From: an uncultured bacterium
GTDB lineage: Bacteria; Fidelibacterota; Marinisomatia; Marinisomatales; UBA1611
Assembly (NCBI GenBank): GCA_965660855.1
Contig: CBFIBM010000005.1
Location: 1,466 to 65,465, forward strand
Direction: 5' to 3'
DNA: 64,000 bases
Positions within the stretch are counted from its first letter, which is position 1; each line of letters starts with the position of its first letter. Below, one piece after another: positions 11,879-19,819 of the stretch. The translations under genes and the position numbers were made by a program. The notes under the pieces are model-generated. The model was not told where the DNA came from. It was given only the letters and a program-made list of their open reading frames with translations, and searched no databases.

Positions 11879-13771
11879 ATGTTTAAGCCCAAGAATATTT
11901 TTTTAATTGTATTTACGATTATTATTTTATCAATTTTTTCTTGTACGGAAGACCCTTATGAAATTCCTGAACCTGATACTACACCACCTCAAGCTCTTGT
12001 GATTTTTCCCATTGATGGTGAACCTGTATCAGGAATTGTTACCGTTCAAGCACGCGCAAATGATAATGAAGGTATTGAAGAAGTTTTATTTTACATAAAT
12101 CAAGAATACGTTGGGAAAGATACTACAACCAAAAATGATATTGCAACTTTTGATTGGGATACCAACCTATATGAGCAAAACAATGAAGGTGAAAATCCTA
12201 CAAGAAAATATGCAGATGATAATTTTCATTTTATTTCAGTTATAGCACGTGACATTAGTGATAATGAATATTCTTCAGTCCCAATTCGTAGTTTTGTAGA
12301 TAATATAGACAGCGAACCTCCAAGTGCTTTTTTTCTTACGCCTTTCTCTGGGCAGTATCTAACTGGTATAGCTAGTATTACTGTAGTCGCTACTGATAAT
12401 GTTGGAATACAATATGTAAGCTTTTTTGTCAATAATGTTCTCCAAGGTTATATTCTTCCTGAAGAAAATTCATCATCTTTTGAATATTCATGGAATACCA
12501 CTCTTGTCCAAAGCGGAGATTATTATTCAATTTATGCAAATGTGCGAGACAATAATAATAATAATACAATCATTCCTCCAATCAGTGTGTATGTAGATAA
12601 TGGAACTCAAATAGACATAACACCTCCCAACGGAGCGATAGTTAGTCCTCCAGCAGGGATAAGTGTTAGTGGGGATGTTCAAATTATTATAAGTGCTACG
12701 GATAATAGAGCTATGGGAGAGGTTTTTTTATCTATTAATAATGAACTTATAGATATCATAGAAAACGAACCCTATTCATATATATGGAATACAAATAATG
12801 AAGAAGAGGATTCAGATCATATAATAAGTGTTATCCTAAGTGATCTGGCAGGTAATGAAACGCCTCTTAACCCAATATCAGTTACGGTAGATAATAATCC
12901 AAGTAGTGATATTAGTCCCCCAGATATTATTATTATGGAGCCAGTAGCTGGTCAAAATGTATCTGGGATTGTACCCATTAAAGTTAGCGCTGAAGACGAT
13001 TCAGGAATTAGTCATATAGAATACTTCATAAATGGAATTCTTGTTCATACAGATACTCTTTCACCATTTAGCTATGATTGGATTACAAATGATTACACCG
13101 ATGATCAAGAGCATATCATATATGTTATTGCTTATGATATTGAAGGTAATTTCTCCCATCATCAACCAATTGCGGTATTCGTTGATAACAATGATGATAT
13201 ACAACCATATGGTCAAATTCAGAATCCTATACCAGGGCAAATTGTAAATGGTGTAATTACAATACAAATGTCTGCTGAAGATAATGTAGCAATTAACAAT
13301 ATTGAATTATCCATTAATGGTAATATTGTGGATAGTTTATTTTCAAGTCCATTTTCCTATTTATGGAATACTGAGCTAGAGAATGAAGACGAGTATAGCG
13401 TTATAAGTGCAATAATAAGAGATAATTCTGAAAACCAATTTTCTGTTCCACCAATAAGTGTATTTGTGAATAATGAAATTGATGATCTTAGTCCACCAAC
13501 AGGTTCTATTTCAAATCCAGTTTCAGGTCAAATTGTTAATGGCGTTGTTAGCTTTACAATTCTAGCACAAGATGATGTTAGTATAGATGAAGTTTTATTT
13601 TTTATCGATGGTATTCAAGTCTACAGCGATAATTCCGAACCTTATATTTATCAATGGGATACAACTATTCTATCAGATAGTTCACAACATACTCTATCTG
13701 CAACGGTTAAAGACAATGCTAGTAATAGTATTTTATTGCAACCAATTATAGTTACAGTAGAAAACGAATGA
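11879..13771 (+). CDS. Lipoprotein with six bacterial Ig-like (Big_7-type) repeats
   Basis: Lipobox IFSC. Six ~95-aa units of the form DxxPP..P..G....G...I...A.DN.....V.F.ING........P..Y.W.T. Confidence 0.85.
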   Translation: MFKPKNIFLIVFTIIILSIFSCTEDPYEIPEPDTTPPQALVIFPIDGEPVSGIVTVQARANDNEGIEEVLFYINQEYVGKDTTTKNDIATFDWDTNLYEQNNEGENPTRKYADDNFHFISVIARDISDNEYSSVPIRSFVDNIDSEPPSAFFLTPFSGQYLTGIASITVVATDNVGIQYVSFFVNNVLQGYILPEENSSSFEYSWNTTLVQSGDYYSIYANVRDNNNNNTIIPPISVYVDNGTQIDITPPNGAIVSPPAGISVSGDVQIIISATDNRAMGEVFLSINNELIDIIENEPYSYIWNTNNEEEDSDHIISVILSDLAGNETPLNPISVTVDNNPSSDISPPDIIIMEPVAGQNVSGIVPIKVSAEDDSGISHIEYFINGILVHTDTLSPFSYDWITNDYTDDQEHIIYVIAYDIEGNFSHHQPIAVFVDNNDDIQPYGQIQNPIPGQIVNGVITIQMSAEDNVAINNIELSINGNIVDSLFSSPFSYLWNTELENEDEYSVISAIIRDNSENQFSVPPISVFVNNEIDDLSPPTGSISNPVSGQIVNGVVSFTILAQDDVSIDEVLFFIDGIQVYSDNSEPYIYQWDTTILSDSSQHTLSATVKDNASNSILLQPIIVTVENE

Positions 13772-16332
13772 TGAAAAAAATTATTTTTATATACTTTTTC
13801 TTTTTTATTAATTGCGAAGGTCCAATTTTTGATGTTCCAAATGATAAGGATACAATACCACCAACATTAACAATCACTTACCCAGCTGATAAGTCAATAG
13901 TATCAGACACCGTGTTAATTACTGCATATGCTTTTGATAATGTTGAATTGGACACAGTGCAAATATTTTTAAATGATTCCGTTATCCACTCTAGTAAAGA
14001 GCCTCCTTTTTCATATCAATGGATTACAAATGATTATCAAGAAGACGTATCTCATACAATCCGTGCAAAAGCCATTGACTTGCAAGGGAATATCAACTTT
14101 ACAAACACCATTAGTGTTACTGTAGATAACGTAGATAATTCTCCTCCTACTGGTGCTATTATTTTCCCATTTACTGGACAAACTTTAAATGGTGAAGTTA
14201 CAATCGTGATTGAAGCCTCGGATAATGAGGAGGTTGCATCATTGATACTTTATATAGACGGAAATGTTGTACAAACTTTTACAGATCAACCTTACAGATT
14301 TACATGGAATACTACTGGCTTAGTTGATGATATTGTTTACACAATTCATGCACATGTCATTGATAATAATTCCAACCAAATTACTTTGGGTCCGATTAAT
14401 GTTCTAATTGATAATGAAGAACCCACAGATAATATTCCCCCTACTGGTACTATCACAAATCCTGCATCAGCAGCATCTGTTTCAGGTAATGTAAATATTG
14501 ATATCAATGCATTTGATAATACCGCAGTCAAATATGTAGATATAATTATTGATGGATCATTAGTCGATACTGATTCTATTCCTCCATATAGCTATAATTG
14601 GAATACTTTAAATGAGATTGAAGACGTTCACCATGTTATAAATGTAAACATAACTGATTTATCAGGTAATACAACCACACTTTTCCCAGTAAGTGTTTTT
14701 GTAAATAATTCCATTGATCCTGATAATACTCCACCAACAATCATTATTACTGAACCAGCTGCTAATCAAACTGTAAATGGTACAGTTAATATAAAAACAC
14801 TCGTTTTTGATAATATTGGTATTAGCCGAGTTGAATTTTACCAAAATTATGATATAGTACATACTGCCTCATCAAACCCGTATGAATATAGTTGGAATAC
14901 CTCTGTTCATAGTGATGAAAGCCAACATATATGGTATGTCAAAGCTTTTGATACAAGTGAAAATTCTTCACAATCTCAACCACTTGCAGTTACTATAGAT
15001 AATATAGATAATATTCCACCCTCAGGATATATATCCTTTCCATATGCAGGTCAAAGTGTAAGTGGAGAGATAGAAATACAATTATCTACAAATGATAATA
15101 TAGCTGTAACAGAAGCTAAATTTTTTATAAATGGTAATTTAGTTTTTACAGATAACATTGAACCATTTTCGTATTCATGGAATACCTTATTGGAAGAAGA
15201 AAATAGTGAAACTGTTATTTTTTCATCTATATCTGATAACGCAAATAATATTGTCGATTTAAATCCTATTGTTGTTTTTGTTGACAATGATGATATTATT
15301 GAAGATGATAATATTTATCCATTTGCCAGTATAATATCTCCAATATCAAGCCAAATAGTATCAGATACAGTACTTATTTCTGGATTTGCAACAGATAATG
15401 TTGGAATTGAAGAGATAAAATACTTTATAAATGGTAATTTATTTGAAACCTTAATTGATACACCTTACGCAACTAAGTGGAATACTTATTCATACCCAAA
15501 TAATTCTAATCATACTATAACAATGATTGCAAATGACCCTGCAGGAAATGAGTACATCTCCCAACCGGTATATGTTATTGTTCAGAATGAATATGAATCC
15601 ATAGTATCTGACATATATCTTGAAAGTAGCATTGATACCTTTAAATTAAATTGGGATGCTCCTTTCGGTGCTGAAAGATACAAAATATATCGCGATGGAA
15701 CTTTTATAGAGGAAGTGACCGAACAGTTTTTAGTCCACTCAACACCTGGCGGTGTTGAACATTGCTTCGAAATATCTGCAGTTAATTCTGTTAATATTGA
15801 AGGTGAAAAATCTGAACAGATTTGTGGTGTTGCAATACTTAATTCTCCCTCATCTTTTAATGTCAATTTAAATTATGAAGATATAGAATTAAACTGGTCT
15901 TCAGTTACTAACGCATCAGGATATCAATTAAGAAGAAATGATTTAATTATTTGGACTGGTAATAACTTAAACTATACTGATAATAATATAAATTTTGATA
16001 CTATATATAGCTACACTATCAATGCATTTGATTTTCAAGATACAGCTGGTGCTTTATCAAATATAATTTCAGTTTTAACAGTACCTGAAATATTACCTCC
16101 AATATTAGCATCGTCAATTACTGGAACATCTGCTACATTAAACTGGACATCAATTGAAACTGCTCAGACTTACAGAATTTATAAAGATGATTCTTTCTTA
16201 ACTGAAACTGATGCTTTGACATATGAAATTGATATATTACCTGGTATCCAATCATGCTTTAAAATTACATCCATAAATACATTAGGAGCTGAGAGTATTT
16301 TTTCAAATGAAGAATGCCAAACAGGATCTTAA
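13768..16332 (+). CDS. Lipoprotein with six Ig-like repeats and three C-terminal FN3-like domains
   Basis: Lipobox FINC and six DxxPP units as in the upstream gene, then three LNW....A..Y.IYR/K units. ATGA overlap with the upstream gene. Confidence 0.85.
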   Translation: MMKKIIFIYFFFFINCEGPIFDVPNDKDTIPPTLTITYPADKSIVSDTVLITAYAFDNVELDTVQIFLNDSVIHSSKEPPFSYQWITNDYQEDVSHTIRAKAIDLQGNINFTNTISVTVDNVDNSPPTGAIIFPFTGQTLNGEVTIVIEASDNEEVASLILYIDGNVVQTFTDQPYRFTWNTTGLVDDIVYTIHAHVIDNNSNQITLGPINVLIDNEEPTDNIPPTGTITNPASAASVSGNVNIDINAFDNTAVKYVDIIIDGSLVDTDSIPPYSYNWNTLNEIEDVHHVINVNITDLSGNTTTLFPVSVFVNNSIDPDNTPPTIIITEPAANQTVNGTVNIKTLVFDNIGISRVEFYQNYDIVHTASSNPYEYSWNTSVHSDESQHIWYVKAFDTSENSSQSQPLAVTIDNIDNIPPSGYISFPYAGQSVSGEIEIQLSTNDNIAVTEAKFFINGNLVFTDNIEPFSYSWNTLLEEENSETVIFSSISDNANNIVDLNPIVVFVDNDDIIEDDNIYPFASIISPISSQIVSDTVLISGFATDNVGIEEIKYFINGNLFETLIDTPYATKWNTYSYPNNSNHTITMIANDPAGNEYISQPVYVIVQNEYESIVSDIYLESSIDTFKLNWDAPFGAERYKIYRDGTFIEEVTEQFLVHSTPGGVEHCFEISAVNSVNIEGEKSEQICGVAILNSPSSFNVNLNYEDIELNWSSVTNASGYQLRRNDLIIWTGNNLNYTDNNINFDTIYSYTINAFDFQDTAGALSNIISVLTVPEILPPILASSITGTSATLNWTSIETAQTYRIYKDDSFLTETDALTYEIDILPGIQSCFKITSINTLGAESIFSNEECQTGS

Positions 16333-17078
16333 GGAAATAAATCAACTCCATCACAACCTTTTAAAGAATGATATAAATCAATATCATCAAACTGTTCTGA
16401 ATTAAATATTATTTTCCCTTCCTCAGGATTTTCTAAGTTAATAAAATAATATTCAGGTGCAATAGTATTTGAAAAAACAATAGTATCATAATTTGAACTA
16501 TCTGAAGACATTTCTAAAGTCATTATAGTTAAATACATCCAACCATTCGAACTCCAAGTTAATGTATCAATTTGAATAGAGGGAAAGTCCATCAGCTTTA
16601 GAGTATCATTCAAAAATCCGCCGTAATAATCTAATTGCAATGTCTCTTGGGTTTGATTTGTTTTTGGATCTAAACATAATTTTATAGAGTCATAATCAGA
16701 TAAAGCCCAGTAACCACCAGGTTTAAAGCAATTTATGTATATAGAATCAGAGAATTCTCCAATATTTGTTGAATGATCTTTCGCTCTAATTTTATATCCA
16801 AAATTTTCCATCCAAATAATTGATGTATCTTCATAAAATGTATTTGATACAGGTACTAAATCAAGTGAGTCAAAAGTGAATCCATTATCGGAAGATTTAA
16901 AAATATGATATTCTTTTATATCGTTATTTAATGGTGAATTCCATAAAATACGTATTCGAGGATTGGACTCTGACATAGTGAAGTACCCTCGGATATTTGT
17001 AGGTTCATCGGGTGCCTCTTCATCTAGATCACAACTTATAAAAAAGATGCAAACTATAAATGATATAAGTTTTCTCAT
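16329..17078 (-). CDS. Lipoprotein with N-terminal FN3-like domain
   Basis: Likely start is ATG 17078 (MRKLISFIVCIFFISCD). Motifs ILWNSP..DIKEYHIFKS and YKIRAKD...G.FS. The longer ORF-track start overlaps tRNA-Gly. Confidence 0.75.
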   Translation of the reverse strand: MRKLISFIVCIFFISCDLDEEAPDEPTNIRGYFTMSESNPRIRILWNSPLNNDIKEYHIFKSSDNGFTFDSLDLVPVSNTFYEDTSIIWMENFGYKIRAKDHSTNIGEFSDSIYINCFKPGGYWALSDYDSIKLCLDPKTNQTQETLQLDYYGGFLNDTLKLMDFPSIQIDTLTWSSNGWMYLTIMTLEMSSDSSNYDTIVFSNTIAPEYYFINLENPEEGKIIFNSEQFDDIDLYHSLKGCDGVDLFP

Positions 17079-17103
17079 TAAGAACTTTACTAAATTTAGA
17101 TGG

Positions 17104-17134
17104 AAAAAAAAAAGCCTCATATTTGAGGCTTTTT
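17104..17134 (-). terminator. Intrinsic terminator after tRNA-Gly
   Basis: AAAGCCTC-ATATTT-GAGGCTTT hairpin followed by a long T run on the minus strand. Confidence 0.75.
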
Positions 17135-17135
17135 G

Positions 17136-17208
17136 AGCGAGAGACGAGATTCGAACTCGCGACCCCCACCTTGGCAAGGTGATGCTCTACCAGCTGAGCT
17201 ACTCTCGC
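17136..17208 (-). tRNA. tRNA-Gly(GCC)
   Basis: GCGAGAGTAGCTCAGCTGGTAGAGCATCACCTT-GCC-AAGGTG...GAGTTCGAATCTCGTCTCTCGCT. CCA not encoded. Confidence 0.96.
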
Positions 17209-17251
17209 AATTGAGTTAATAAGTTGTTTAAAATTTATGACCTCATCACAA

Positions 17252-17698
17252 TTAAGACAATGTTGTTTTTGGGTAAAATTCAAAAATTCTTTTTTTGTTG
17301 ATAAATATAGTATAAGAAAATATAAGTAATGTGAAATTTTCTATTAATTTTTGAACACCGACCATTTCTCCTTCCTTTAAACCACAGCCACACTCTATAT
17401 TAAATCCTCTAATCATCGCTTGAAAAACTAAAAAATTAAACATGATTAAAAGCACTCCAGTGGTTAGAACTGAACCATCTATCATGATCCCTAATATTAA
17501 GCTGGTTCCAATAAAAAGTTCTATCCACGGCAATATGATAGCTACAAAATTTTCAAGACCAAAAGGAATAAAATGATAGTTTGAAATATCCCTTGCAAAT
17601 TGCTGAGGATTTAATAATTTATCATAACTAGCAACTATAAATACTAACCCTAATACTATACGCATGAAGAGAATTATATATGGATGTACCTTATTCAT
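17252..17698 (-). CDS. MauE/DoxX family redox-associated membrane protein
   Basis: RIVLGLVFIVASYDK, PQQF...I.NY, LPWIELFIG and the RGFNIECGCG motif. ATG 17698 overlaps the rhodanese stop. Confidence 0.85.
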   Translation of the reverse strand: MNKVHPYIILFMRIVLGLVFIVASYDKLLNPQQFARDISNYHFIPFGLENFVAIILPWIELFIGTSLILGIMIDGSVLTTGVLLIMFNFLVFQAMIRGFNIECGCGLKEGEMVGVQKLIENFTLLIFSYTIFINKKRIFEFYPKTTLS

Positions 17699-18173
17699 AT
17701 TTTTGAATTTCATAACCTGAATCCGTCCATGATTTCCAACCTCCGCTAAAAACAAGAATATTTGTGAAACCTAAATCTTGGAGTTCAAATGCTAAATCCT
17801 CACTAGAACCACAATCATCATCACTACAATAGACAACAAAAGCAGAATCAAGACCTATAACACTGTCAATTTTAGAGCTTAATATCTCAATATCGTCATT
17901 AAAAATAGCTCCAGGAATTATTCCATCAGAAAGATATTCTTCTGCTCGCGCATCCACAAATAGAGTTTTTTTTGAGTACAAATCTAGAGCTAGTTTAATA
18001 TCAATTTTACGAATATTTGCTAATTGATTAATAGACTTTAAATAATCTGAGGAAGTTATTTCCTCAATCGATTTCGCAACAAGCGGTAAACTATTCTGAT
18101 TTATAAAATTTACTCCTAGTCCTAAAAATGAAGGTACGATAATAAGGTAAATAAATTGAAGCCTAAAATTCAT
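17691..18173 (-). CDS. Membrane-anchored rhodanese-like protein
   Basis: N-terminal TM helix. Motifs FVDARAEEY...IIPGA, VVYCSDDDCGSS and LGFTNILVFSGGWKSW. Confidence 0.88.
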   Translation of the reverse strand: MNFRLQFIYLIIVPSFLGLGVNFINQNSLPLVAKSIEEITSSDYLKSINQLANIRKIDIKLALDLYSKKTLFVDARAEEYLSDGIIPGAIFNDDIEILSSKIDSVIGLDSAFVVYCSDDDCGSSEDLAFELQDLGFTNILVFSGGWKSWTDSGYEIQKYE

Positions 18174-18190
18174 TTAGAATTGCTTTTCAA

Positions 18191-19384
18191 TTAGTGATTA
18201 TGCCCGTCATGACTAGAATGATCGAGTGGTGATTTTTTTGCTTTACTATTTTTTTTATTTTTACTCTTGGGGTTTAAAATATCGCAAGTAGAAACTGCTG
18301 AATTAACAAACTTAAGCATAGCCGGATCTTCTCCTATTTTTTGATTTAATGCTATAGTTTTATACCTTAGTTTATTAACTGCTTTTTCTATTAATTCTTT
18401 TGAGACAATTTCATCTTCTTTATATCCATCAATCAACTTTAAAACATTTGATTGGTCAGCATATATTTGTTCAAGAGTCTTATTGGGATTCTTTTTCTGT
18501 AAACGCTCAAATCTTTTCTTTATCTGATTTATTTTTTTCTCTTCTGCTGTAATATCTACAAAGTTTTCATTCTTGTCTTTAATTGTTAAATCTGCAGTGA
18601 TTAAGTACTTACCCTGCTTACCACAAGAATAAACTAATGGCCCATCTGATGCTTGAGAGTTGCTGGAGCGAGTCATATTTGTACTTCCACTGGCAATAAT
18701 AAAGTCTGCGTTAGGAAAGTTTTCATTTAAGCTTGATTGTTCACTCCTAGTACAATTAGCAAGGAGAACAGTAACATCAACATCTTTAGATAAAGTATTT
18801 ATAAAATTATTACCAGCATCAATATAATTATCGGCTATCATAGTTGTGGATGTGTCAGGTAAATTACTTGTGACTCCAATAACCCCAATTTTCAAACCAT
18901 CCCTTTTAAAAATTTTATAAGGTTGAAATAATAAATCTTTTGATTTTGCATTTCTTAAATTTGCAGAGATAAATGGTATTTCTGTATTTTGAGTTATATC
19001 TTCTAAAAAATTTAATCCATTCAACACTTCATAATGTCCAACATTGATAATATTACAACCAATTTTTTCATATCCATTGATAATGGATTTTGCTCTATGA
19101 ATTTCAGATTTTAAATTTTTATCATTTAATTTTGAGGTACTAAAAAAGATATCACCTGCATCCAAAATTAAAGGATCAATTCCACTCGCTTTCATTTCAT
19201 TAATTTTTACAAGTCTTCTTGACAGACCGCCAAGAGGATTTTTCTTTCAACCACAAGGATCTAATTGACCATGCACACTACCTGATAGAATCATTGTAAA
19301 AGACCCTGCCGATGTTTCAGAGCAAGACCAAAATATTAAACAACATAGAATATAAATTACTGTGCCTTGTATTTTCCGTTTCAT
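18191..19384 (-). CDS. UshA-like (5'-nucleotidase N-domain fold) selenoprotein, lipoprotein; Sec at codon 46 (C-G-U motif)
   Basis: ATG 19384 is in frame with the 334-aa ORF: MKRKIQGTVIYILCCLIFWSC...SGSVHGQLDPCG-TGA(19247-19249)-KKNPLGGLSRR...DAGD. It is the only in-frame stop, and a SECIS-like hairpin follows. Total 397 aa. Confidence 0.9.
19217..19235 (-). promoter_or_regulatory. Bacterial SECIS element of the UshA-like gene
   Basis: UCUUGGC-GGUCU-GUCAAGA, a 7-bp stem starting 11 nt after the UGA. The apical GGUCU resembles the E. coli fdhF SECIS loop and spacing. Confidence 0.85.
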
Positions 19385-19387
19385 TTT

Positions 19388-19714
19388 TTAACCACCACTT
19401 AATTTTACGTTATAACCCTTTTTAATTAATTCTTTTTGTATAAACTCTCTTTTATTTCCTTGAATTAAAATTTCGTTATTTTTAATAGCTCCTCCAACTC
19501 CACATTTTTTCTTTAGTTCTTTTGATAGAGTGGTAATATTTTTCTTTGACTCTGATAAGCCTTTAATTACGGTTACAACCTTTCCACCACCTCTTCGATC
19601 TAAGTGCAAACGTAAATGCTGCTGATTTGGGTTAATATTTTTATACAATCCAGTATCATCATCTATTTTTTTTATAGAGGTGTCTGTTGAGTAAACAATA
19701 TTGGTCTTATTCAT
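19388..19714 (-). CDS. yciH: SUI1/eIF1-family translation factor YciH
   Basis: IVYSTD, RRGGGKVVTVIKGL, LKKKCGVGG and EILIQG...KLSGG. Confidence 0.92.
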   Translation of the reverse strand: MNKTNIVYSTDTSIKKIDDDTGLYKNINPNQQHLRLHLDRRGGGKVVTVIKGLSESKKNITTLSKELKKKCGVGGAIKNNEILIQGNKREFIQKELIKKGYNVKLSGG

Positions 19715-19819
19715 CTTAAAAAATATTAAATTAAATCTATTGTTTAATAATTATCACATTTGATATTAATCAAAAATACTAACTTTTATAATTAAAACGA
19801 TAAATTATTGTTCAAAATA

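Follow-up and report, generated by a model that had tools for sequence, protein, structure and literature searches.

Rhodanese and MauE genes linked to an UshA-like selenoprotein in Marinimicrobia suggest a variant of the extracytoplasmic disulfide relay

We analysed a stretch of 64,000 nucleotides (nt) from contig CBFIBM010000005.1 of an uncultured Marinimicrobia bacterium (the window hereafter; all coordinates are those of the whole window) and focused on a cluster of four genes, which encode a YciH/SUI1-family translation factor, an UshA-like selenoprotein, a rhodanese-fold protein and MauE. On comparative evidence, the rhodanese–MauE pair is the conserved core of the cluster and its strongest signal, as (i) the two genes overlap, (ii) the pair occurs phylum-wide, (iii) the genes are fused in one case and (iv) the cysteine residues of both products are invariant. 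Within a class-level clade the selenoprotein gene accompanies the pair, and as the trio survives a rearrangement of gene order there, its conservation argues for a functional link. This setting suggests an undescribed variant of the extracytoplasmic disulfide relay. We see about an even chance that the three genes 3' of yciH encode a periplasmic, quinone-linked thiol/selenol relay, in which the selenoprotein would be a client or the terminal enzyme. The whole account rests on comparative genomics. The genes and their key motifs, all on the minus strand, are as follows.

17252..17698, minus strand: MauE, 148 amino acids (aa) from the ATG at 17698; Pfam MauE (PF07291), 86.5 bits (cut-off 27)
17384..17392, minus strand: C-G-C codons of MauE (Cys103 and Cys105, motif IECGCG), read from the sequence
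17691..18173, minus strand: membrane-anchored rhodanese-fold protein, 160 aa; Pfam Rhodanese (PF00581), 44.3 bits against a cut-off of 22.2
17811..17828, minus strand: YCSDDDC codons of the rhodanese (Cys116 and Cys121), read from the sequence
18191..19384, minus strand: open reading frame (ORF) of the UshA-like selenoprotein, 397 aa, from translation; open only with a TGA codon read through
19217..19235, minus strand: hairpin resembling a selenocysteine insertion sequence (SECIS), 7-bp stem; from comparative pairing and covariation
19247..19249, minus strand: in-frame TGA at residue 46 (motif DPCG-U), read as selenocysteine (Sec)
19388..19714, minus strand: yciH/SUI1-family translation factor gene, 108 aa; Pfam SUI1, 67.5 bits

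The genes for the translation factor and the selenoprotein are 3 nt apart, the selenoprotein and rhodanese genes 17 nt apart, and the rhodanese and mauE genes overlap by 8 nt; if mauE starts instead at an alternative in-frame ATG at 17713, the overlap is 23 nt. A preliminary description of this DNA, made from the sequence alone, had presented four co-oriented genes with these spacings, followed by tRNA-Gly and a terminator, and a C-G-U, a C-x4-C and a C-G-C motif in the last three products. All of these features were borne out by the sequence.

A scan with one genome per species yielded 32 related loci, and the organism-named records were all from Marinimicrobia. The rhodanese gene follows the selenoprotein gene in 28 of these close loci and mauE does so in 27; in one further locus the contig stops behind the rhodanese gene. 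We also took a wider sample, consisting of the best-matching locus from each of 40 genomes of 21 families together with 7 second copies. In 30 of these 40 genomes the rhodanese–MauE pair adjoins the selenoprotein gene, in two different arrangements. The order ushA–rhodanese–mauE appeared in families f2 and f4–f16, and the order rhodanese–mauE–ushA in f17, f18 and f20, which belong to another order of the same class; the gaps in the latter arrangement are 14 nt or less. The rhodanese and mauE genes are neighbours in all close and sampled loci with either gene. The pair is also present without the selenoprotein gene in two distant families (loci L158 and L159), as overlapping genes with a helix-anchored YC-x4-C rhodanese, and in these genomes the pair and the selenoprotein gene reside at separate places. 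As the selenoprotein also exists without the pair, the link between them is not obligatory.

In one genome of family f17 (G222), the rhodanese (YCSGEDC) and MauE (HCGC) are encoded in a single 360-aa ORF (L141:1927-3009, minus strand) that carries both Pfam domains and lies directly upstream of the selenoprotein gene. This fusion comes from one assembly, and a sequencing error joining two genes is possible. An extra hydrophobic helix is found between the two domains, which fits a predicted topology with the rhodanese outside and the N-terminus of MauE inside. The idea that MauE–rhodanese fusions are common gained no support from a search for longer MauE fusions; the N-terminal part of its one 323-aa candidate turned out to be of low complexity and not a rhodanese. 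The proposal in the preliminary description that the last three genes form a periplasm-facing unit stood up to these comparisons, given an invariant Cys or Cys/Sec pair in each product, the survival of the trio after the change of order and the single fusion. The three proteins are probably all membrane-tethered, judging from the signal peptide of one and the hydrophobic helices of the other two.

The MauE of the window has four hydrophobic helices (placed by eye), with the C-G-C motif in the loop that joins helix 3 to helix 4. C103, G104, C105, Lys27 and Glu60 show no substitution among 44 sequences, and both cysteines are retained in all of 54 distinct sequences. The protein is the sole MauE match in the source genome, of which the assembly amounts to 2.09 Mb in 81 contigs and is 84% complete. 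No match for DsbB, VKOR, DSBA or Thioredoxin_4 was detected in the same genome, and in view of its completeness we regard DsbB, VKOR and DsbA as not found rather than absent. Across the phylum, MauE was identified in 221 out of 301 genomes. As described in the main text of a recent preprint (Gonzalez et al., bioRxiv 10.64898/2026.03.05.709764), the MauE proteins of Caldithrix abyssi and Desulfatibacillum replace DsbB in Escherichia coli; the replacement requires the CXC motif in the periplasmic loop between helices 3 and 4, and a conserved Lys in helix 1 and Glu in helix 2 lie near the predicted quinone site. Because CXC-type MauE can replace DsbB, the window protein would most simply be a DsbB-like, quinone-linked disulfide generator, and the rhodanese its periplasmic partner. 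The earlier idea that MauE couples a thiol/selenol relay to the membrane fits this analogy.

The rhodanese-fold protein has one N-terminal hydrophobic helix. Its Cys116 aligns with the canonical catalytic cysteine of solved rhodaneses, and Cys116 and Cys121 are invariant in all of 57 distinct sequences. The intervening tetrapeptide differs between sequences, being SDDD in the window and ENRG, DGAE or SGED elsewhere. A homologue search listed close relatives only, and those with organism names were all Marinimicrobia. Among NCBIfam models, the profile of the rhodanese-related (seleno)protein of the LYCAU type (NF041203) matched at 43.3 bits against a cut-off of 115, the window protein having C-x4-C and not C-x-U. 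Complex prediction for MauE and the rhodanese gave scores of 0.18 and 0.13, the mark being 0.32, which count neither way on binding.

The selenoprotein is a short, cytochrome-less relative of the 'UshA-like' CxU family of NCBIfam. Its best match there was NF041198, 'UshA-like (seleno)protein', with 210.6 bits, short of the cut-off of 275. The match spans profile positions 3–394 of 519, positions 395–519, which in the long forms make up a multihaem cytochrome c554-like domain, being missing from the window protein, and the family motif, PCG[U/C] followed by PxGGLxR[KR], is present. According to the Global Ocean Sampling survey (PMC2398784), this family corresponds to 'COG0737 UshA-like, CxU', represented there by 76 sequences and described as lacking a redox motif of the thiol-oxidoreductase type; it was one of 20 families making up ~95% of the selenoprotein sequences of ocean metagenomes in 2008. 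The entry for the family in a 2026 review (PMC13188914) lists it again with no function assigned. The claim of the preliminary description that no characterised pathway has this gene set calls for qualification, since the selenoprotein family had been catalogued (PMC2398784; NF041198) and a DsbB-like role of MauE shown. A homologue search against 1.8 billion cluster representatives returned 4386 matches with E-values up to 0.001, of which 52 had values up to 1e-30. The selenoprotein was found in 263 of the 301 Marinimicrobia genomes (166 of the 180 of high quality), mostly with one TGA.

The signal peptide of the selenoprotein ends in ...FWSC, a lipobox-like sequence with a conserved Cys. The C-terminal part is helical and is followed by a Lys-rich stretch and a His-rich tail ending in HDGHNH, with no CxxCH. 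The tail (DHSSHDGHNH, HxGHxH type; window 18191-18232) was seen in 17 of 47 aligned members, the others lacking it, and may bind metal. An apparent C-terminal Cys in many UshA-like sequences was rejected as an artefact of reading a terminal TGA stop as Sec; 17 rows of the alignment (A6) carry such a spurious last letter. Many genomes of the window's family, f1, encode a second Sec-containing paralogue (L151-L156) with the motif DPCG-U-PKKP or -KKKP, of which the signal peptide lacks the lipobox Cys and the gene has no adjacent rhodanese or mauE gene.

An AlphaFold2 model of the selenoprotein built from the 47 sequences had a mean predicted local distance difference test value (pLDDT) of 90.3 and a predicted template modelling score (pTM) of 0.84, and Foldseek matched it to the CD73 and UshA 5'-nucleotidases (E about 4e-20, probability 1.0). 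The profile of the family likewise matched UshA (E 2.3e-18), in agreement with a calcineurin-like fold of the N-terminal domain. A weak similarity to SoxB was also noted (50 bits in NCBIfam; E 0.00099 to PDB 4uwq), and Pfam Metallophos gave no match in the window protein. The catalytic ligands of 5'-nucleotidases comprise D-x-H, G-D and G-N-H-E together with two further His motifs. In the UshA-like alignment of 47 sequences no His is invariant, and the G-N-H-E of UshA aligns with a variable 'G-e-k-d'. The residues that are invariant are C44, G45, U46, G52, G53, L54, R56, D75, G77, G109, G123, S140, N142, G170, S232 and N337. Judging from this alignment, the protein is a 5'-nucleotidase fold without the conserved dimetal ligands, and the catalytic apparatus is gone. 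Because of the order of secondary-structure elements in the model, the C-G-U motif would lie in the loop after the first strand, the place of the first metal-binding motif of the fold.

The TGA at 19247-19249 is, by all comparative indications, a genuine Sec codon. This conclusion is drawn because the codon is conserved, a covarying hairpin follows it and the genome encodes the machinery for Sec. In all of the 31 related loci that include the N-terminus, TGA stands in frame at the same site, and the context is kept across it (...HGQLDPCG-TGA-KKNPLGGLSR[RK]). "1 TGA" was also reported for nearly all listed UshA-like matches among the 263 genomes. Family f3, the genomes of which are small (only 0.7-1.1 Mb), has a Cys codon (TGC) at the site, giving the motif D-C-G-C with no TGA. 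The 5' arm of the hairpin begins 11 nt after the TGA, and its 7-bp stem encloses an invariant GGUCU loop; across 30 distinct sequences 87% of the alignment cells were paired, versus 24-50% when the 3' arm was slid. In one base pair of the stem, both partners change at synonymous sites of their codons and pairing is kept (GC 17, AU 10, GU 2, UA 1, unpaired 0). A search of Rfam found no SECIS family match at the hairpin. The genome further contains tRNA-Sec (63.3 bits; called SeC(tca) by ARAGORN), selB (303 bits), selD (389 bits) and selA (494 bits). Its selD (G000:C19:7427-8353, outside the window) itself has one in-frame TGA, that is, encodes a Sec-containing SelD. The codon of the window is covered by contigs of four RNA-library runs, with no base differences listed there. 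If the TGA were a true stop, the locus would be a pseudogene, or would encode a leader ORF of 45 aa and, separately, a protein of 334 aa. Gene callers do split the ORF, most database entries begin after the TGA, and the hairpin region folded as a single sequence was no more stable than shuffled ones (z -0.08). Set against the frame and motif kept in every locus, the Cys codon of f3, the covariation and the full Sec machinery, a true stop is extremely improbable.

If the trio does form a relay, its working may be pictured as follows. MauE, with its C-G-C facing the periplasm, would form a disulfide in the manner of DsbB and pass the electrons to quinone. The rhodanese, held by its one-helix anchor, would act through C-x4-C as the dedicated periplasmic partner of MauE, in the place of DsbA or MauD. 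The UshA-like lipoprotein would then be a client or terminal enzyme, the C-G-U of which is oxidised to a selenenylsulfide; this motif may cycle against some substrate, the electrons leaving via the rhodanese and then MauE. We infer the carrier role of the rhodanese, the client role of the selenoprotein and the direction of electron flow from the combination of these families. It is tempting to go further and regard the C-x4-C rhodanese as a new, non-thioredoxin disulfide carrier working with MauE, the pair as dedicated to the Cys–Sec selenenylsulfide of the UshA-like protein in one large marine clade, and the selenoprotein as a quinone-linked periplasmic redox enzyme, the short form having traded a haem domain for a rhodanese–MauE wire. 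We offer this fuller version tentatively, as possible rather than probable.

A metagenome scan with 8 sequences and the pattern PCG[W/C] gave 61 loci of the wider, cytochrome-fused family (L050-L110), and its long members carry a Cytochrome_C554 domain at the C-terminus. In ~20 of the 61 loci, a TPR (CpoB/YbgF-like) gene is located directly upstream of the long form. A recurrent context consists of genes for an OmpA-family (Pal-like) protein, a DUF4398 protein, a TPR protein and the UshA-like::cytochrome fusion, followed by tsaD and rsmA (e.g., L051:1599-7454, L058:1943-7374 and L067:1978-7446). Elsewhere the long form lies behind selD (AIRS/AIRS_C) and a TusA-DsrE fusion gene (L063:2230-5479 and L065:2129-5554) or behind a DsrE fragment (L060:3-1855). 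The selD/TusA-DsrE context may reflect either a link to genes for selenium and sulfur carriers or a clustering of Sec-related genes.

Several observations weigh against the relay with a dedicated pair. Among the 32 close loci, four lack the rhodanese and mauE genes, of which L021 alone has enough flank (5 kb) for a real absence, and adjacency among such relatives carries little weight because the genes flanking the cluster are syntenic too. The pair is missing from 10 of the 40 sampled loci, namely those of f3 (3), f12 (1 of 2), f21 (2), f24 (2), f28 (1) and f30 (1), some of which have short flanks. It is adjacent to none of the 7 second selenoprotein copies, and in family f22 the selenoprotein occurs in 6 of 6 genomes and MauE in 0 of 6. 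Profiles of the Marinimicrobia rhodanese and MauE found no match among the ORFs of the 61 wider-family loci. A Pfam scan of 229 of the 260 neighbouring ORFs of these loci detected no Rhodanese, MauE or DoxX either; of the 31 ORFs outside that scan, 22 exceed ~700 aa and 8 belong to a near-duplicate locus, with a single further ORF. The adjacency that the preliminary description expected beyond close relatives thus extends over a class-level clade in two gene orders, and does not reach more distant Marinimicrobia or the 61 loci of the wider family. To our knowledge, no rhodanese-fold disulfide carrier acting with DsbB, VKOR or MauE is on record. The partner of MauE is expected to be a thioredoxin-fold protein in the preprint cited above (10.64898/2026.03.05.709764). 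Finally, if MauE is the only disulfide generator of the cell, it may serve general housekeeping and not the selenoprotein in particular.

These points feed a rival explanation, in which the rhodanese–MauE pair is a general analogue of DsbA/DsbB for oxidative folding and the selenoprotein is a mere neighbour or one substrate of many. Besides the single MauE of a genome with no DsbB, VKOR or DsbA detected, the solitary pairs of L158 and L159, the selenoprotein orthologues and second copies lacking an adjacent pair, and the synteny of the flanks all favour it. Co-occurrence of MauE (221 of 301 genomes) and the selenoprotein (263 of 301) does not discriminate, because both are widespread in the phylum. 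This explanation shares its relay chemistry with the proposed selenoprotein relay and differs from it only in the dedication of the pair. General folding does not account readily for an adjacency found in three quarters of the sampled genomes, or for a trio that was kept at gaps of 14 nt or less after the selenoprotein gene had moved from upstream to downstream, and we consider it somewhat unlikely.

The other two alternatives replace the dithiol chemistry itself. The trio could traffic sulfur or selenium, with the rhodanese carrying a persulfide or perselenide, the UshA-like protein acting like SoxB on a Cys/Sec-bound oxyanion, and the MauE/DoxX-type protein passing electrons to quinone in the manner of thiosulfate:quinone oxidoreductase. 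The catalytic Cys of the rhodanese fold is in place, the selenoprotein has its weak SoxB match, and two of the 61 wider loci lie behind selD and TusA-DsrE and one behind a DsrE fragment. DoxX and MauE share a superfamily with the DoxD protein of thiosulfate:quinone oxidoreductase; the DoxX-SseA-SodA complex of Mycobacterium tuberculosis and the DoxDA thiosulfate:quinone oxidoreductase serve here as analogies only. The dimetal ligands of SoxB and UshA are, however, not conserved, CXC-type MauE has a demonstrated disulfide-forming role, and a dithiol/disulfide function fits the rhodanese better than an anion-binding sulfurtransferase loop does, because, apart from the two conserved Cys, the residues of its loop vary between homologues, and those of the window are acidic. 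Such trafficking is hence improbable, and the sulfane sulfur or selenium transfer envisaged in the preliminary description gained no specific support. Even less probable, in our view decidedly so, is metal handling, whereby C-G-U and the His-rich tail would bind a soft metal (Cu, Zn, Ni or Hg) in the periplasm and the pair would do no more than control whether these ligands are oxidised or reduced. In favour of this, soft metals are well coordinated by Cys/Sec pairs, the original metal site of the fold has given way to other residues, and tails of the HxGHxH type occur in 17 of the 47 sequences. The tail is absent in the remaining 30, no gene for a metal transporter or regulator is found in the cluster, and nothing ties MauE or the rhodanese to metal delivery.

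Family f3 shows a different arrangement. Its loci (L114-L116 and L161) encode the Cys form of the UshA-like protein without the pair, and the only MauE-like match in one f3 genome (G024) is a DoxX-type protein lacking CXC, beside a helix-anchored glutaredoxin-like protein.

The yciH gene, which the preliminary description counted as part of the system, was judged to be a bystander. It lies upstream in 30 of the 32 close loci; among the 40 sampled loci it is adjacent in 14, ~1.4 kb away in 2 and missing beside the trio in 24, and because of the last figure we place it outside the unit. Its product falls below the NCBIfam cut-off for YciH (TIGR01158, 85.8 bits against 111.65) and is recognised by Pfam SUI1. 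On the other side of the cluster, two features follow mauE.

17135..17208, minus strand: tRNA-Gly(GCC), 43 nt 3' of mauE; ARAGORN, Rfam tRNA 67.7 bits
17109..17134, minus strand: terminator-like hairpin and T-run directly 3' of tRNA-Gly, from the sequence

A 282-aa ORF at 16329-17177 (minus strand) runs into tRNA-Gly in its longest reading, and because of this overlap its true start is probably internal, at MRKLISFIVCIFFISC... (lipoprotein-like). It adjoins a gene at 13768-16332 (plus strand) for an 854-aa protein that consists of numerous similar repeats; close relatives have the two in synteny as well.

In four RNA libraries, contigs with 95-99% identity to the window span the mauE–rhodanese, rhodanese–ushA and ushA–yciH junctions. 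They are compatible with co-transcription of the genes; this evidence is weak, because the contigs are assembled and DNA carry-over is possible. The runs (X1-X4, for window 17100-19800) hold 37-46% of the words of the stretch and are labelled 'freshwater metagenome', whereas the phylum is known as marine.

If the relay operates as proposed, the orphan UshA-like selenoprotein would gain a biochemical setting through its link to a membrane oxidase. As for MauE, the data suggest that its pathway includes a partner without a thioredoxin fold, and the natural fusion fits the topology that such a partner would need. There would also be a route for disulfide formation in an abundant marine phylum, here in a genome with no DsbA, DsbB or VKOR detected. 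Each part of the trio belongs to a known family; what appears to be new is that MauE is paired with a rhodanese-fold protein and that this pair is tied to a selenoprotein, neither of which we found in the literature searched.

Comparison with known systems places each component. The selenoprotein shares with the UshA-like family of NF041198 and the Global Ocean Sampling survey the PCG-U and PxGGLxR[KR] motifs, an N-terminal domain of the 5'-nucleotidase type and export; it differs from the long forms, which carry a multihaem, cytochrome c554-like C-terminal domain. The rhodanese resembles BH2092 of Bacillus halodurans (PDB 3nhv and 3o3w), a protein of unassigned function with a short deposited chain of 126-144 aa, in which the same Y-C-x4-C reads YCWGPAC in place of YCSDDDC (E 2.5e-12). 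TsoB (NF045694), as outlined in PMC13188914, likewise combines a rhodanese having two chalcogen residues four apart with a membrane thiol-redox module. It differs in carrying Sec at both positions (UxxxxU) and in its membrane part, which is DsbD-like (reducing) and not MauE; its profile matched the window rhodanese faintly (15 bits, E 0.005). PspE, a single-Cys periplasmic rhodanese of E. coli, allows a dsbA mutant to form disulfides again if it is overproduced (Chng et al. 2012, as cited in PMC5403849), and so offers a periplasmic rhodanese fold with a part in oxidative folding such as we propose here. As described there, PspE is soluble, works with DsbC and has no link to a membrane oxidase, whereas the window rhodanese is anchored in the membrane, shows two Cys that never vary and comes with a coupled mauE gene.

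The window MauE agrees with the CXC-type MauE of Gonzalez et al. (10.64898/2026.03.05.709764) in its four helices, C-G-C, Lys and Glu, and differs in having G-L after the CXC, where F-G is common in their set. The source genome, in which no DsbB or VKOR was found, is like the gap-filling species described in that preprint, the main text of which makes no mention of a rhodanese. Unlike the MauE systems presented there, the rhodanese–MauE pair has a selenoprotein attached. In DsbB–DsbA and MauE–MauD the membrane protein is matched with a thioredoxin-fold CxxC protein; in the Marinimicrobia cluster, its place would be taken by a rhodanese-fold protein with C-x4-C, sometimes fused to MauE itself.

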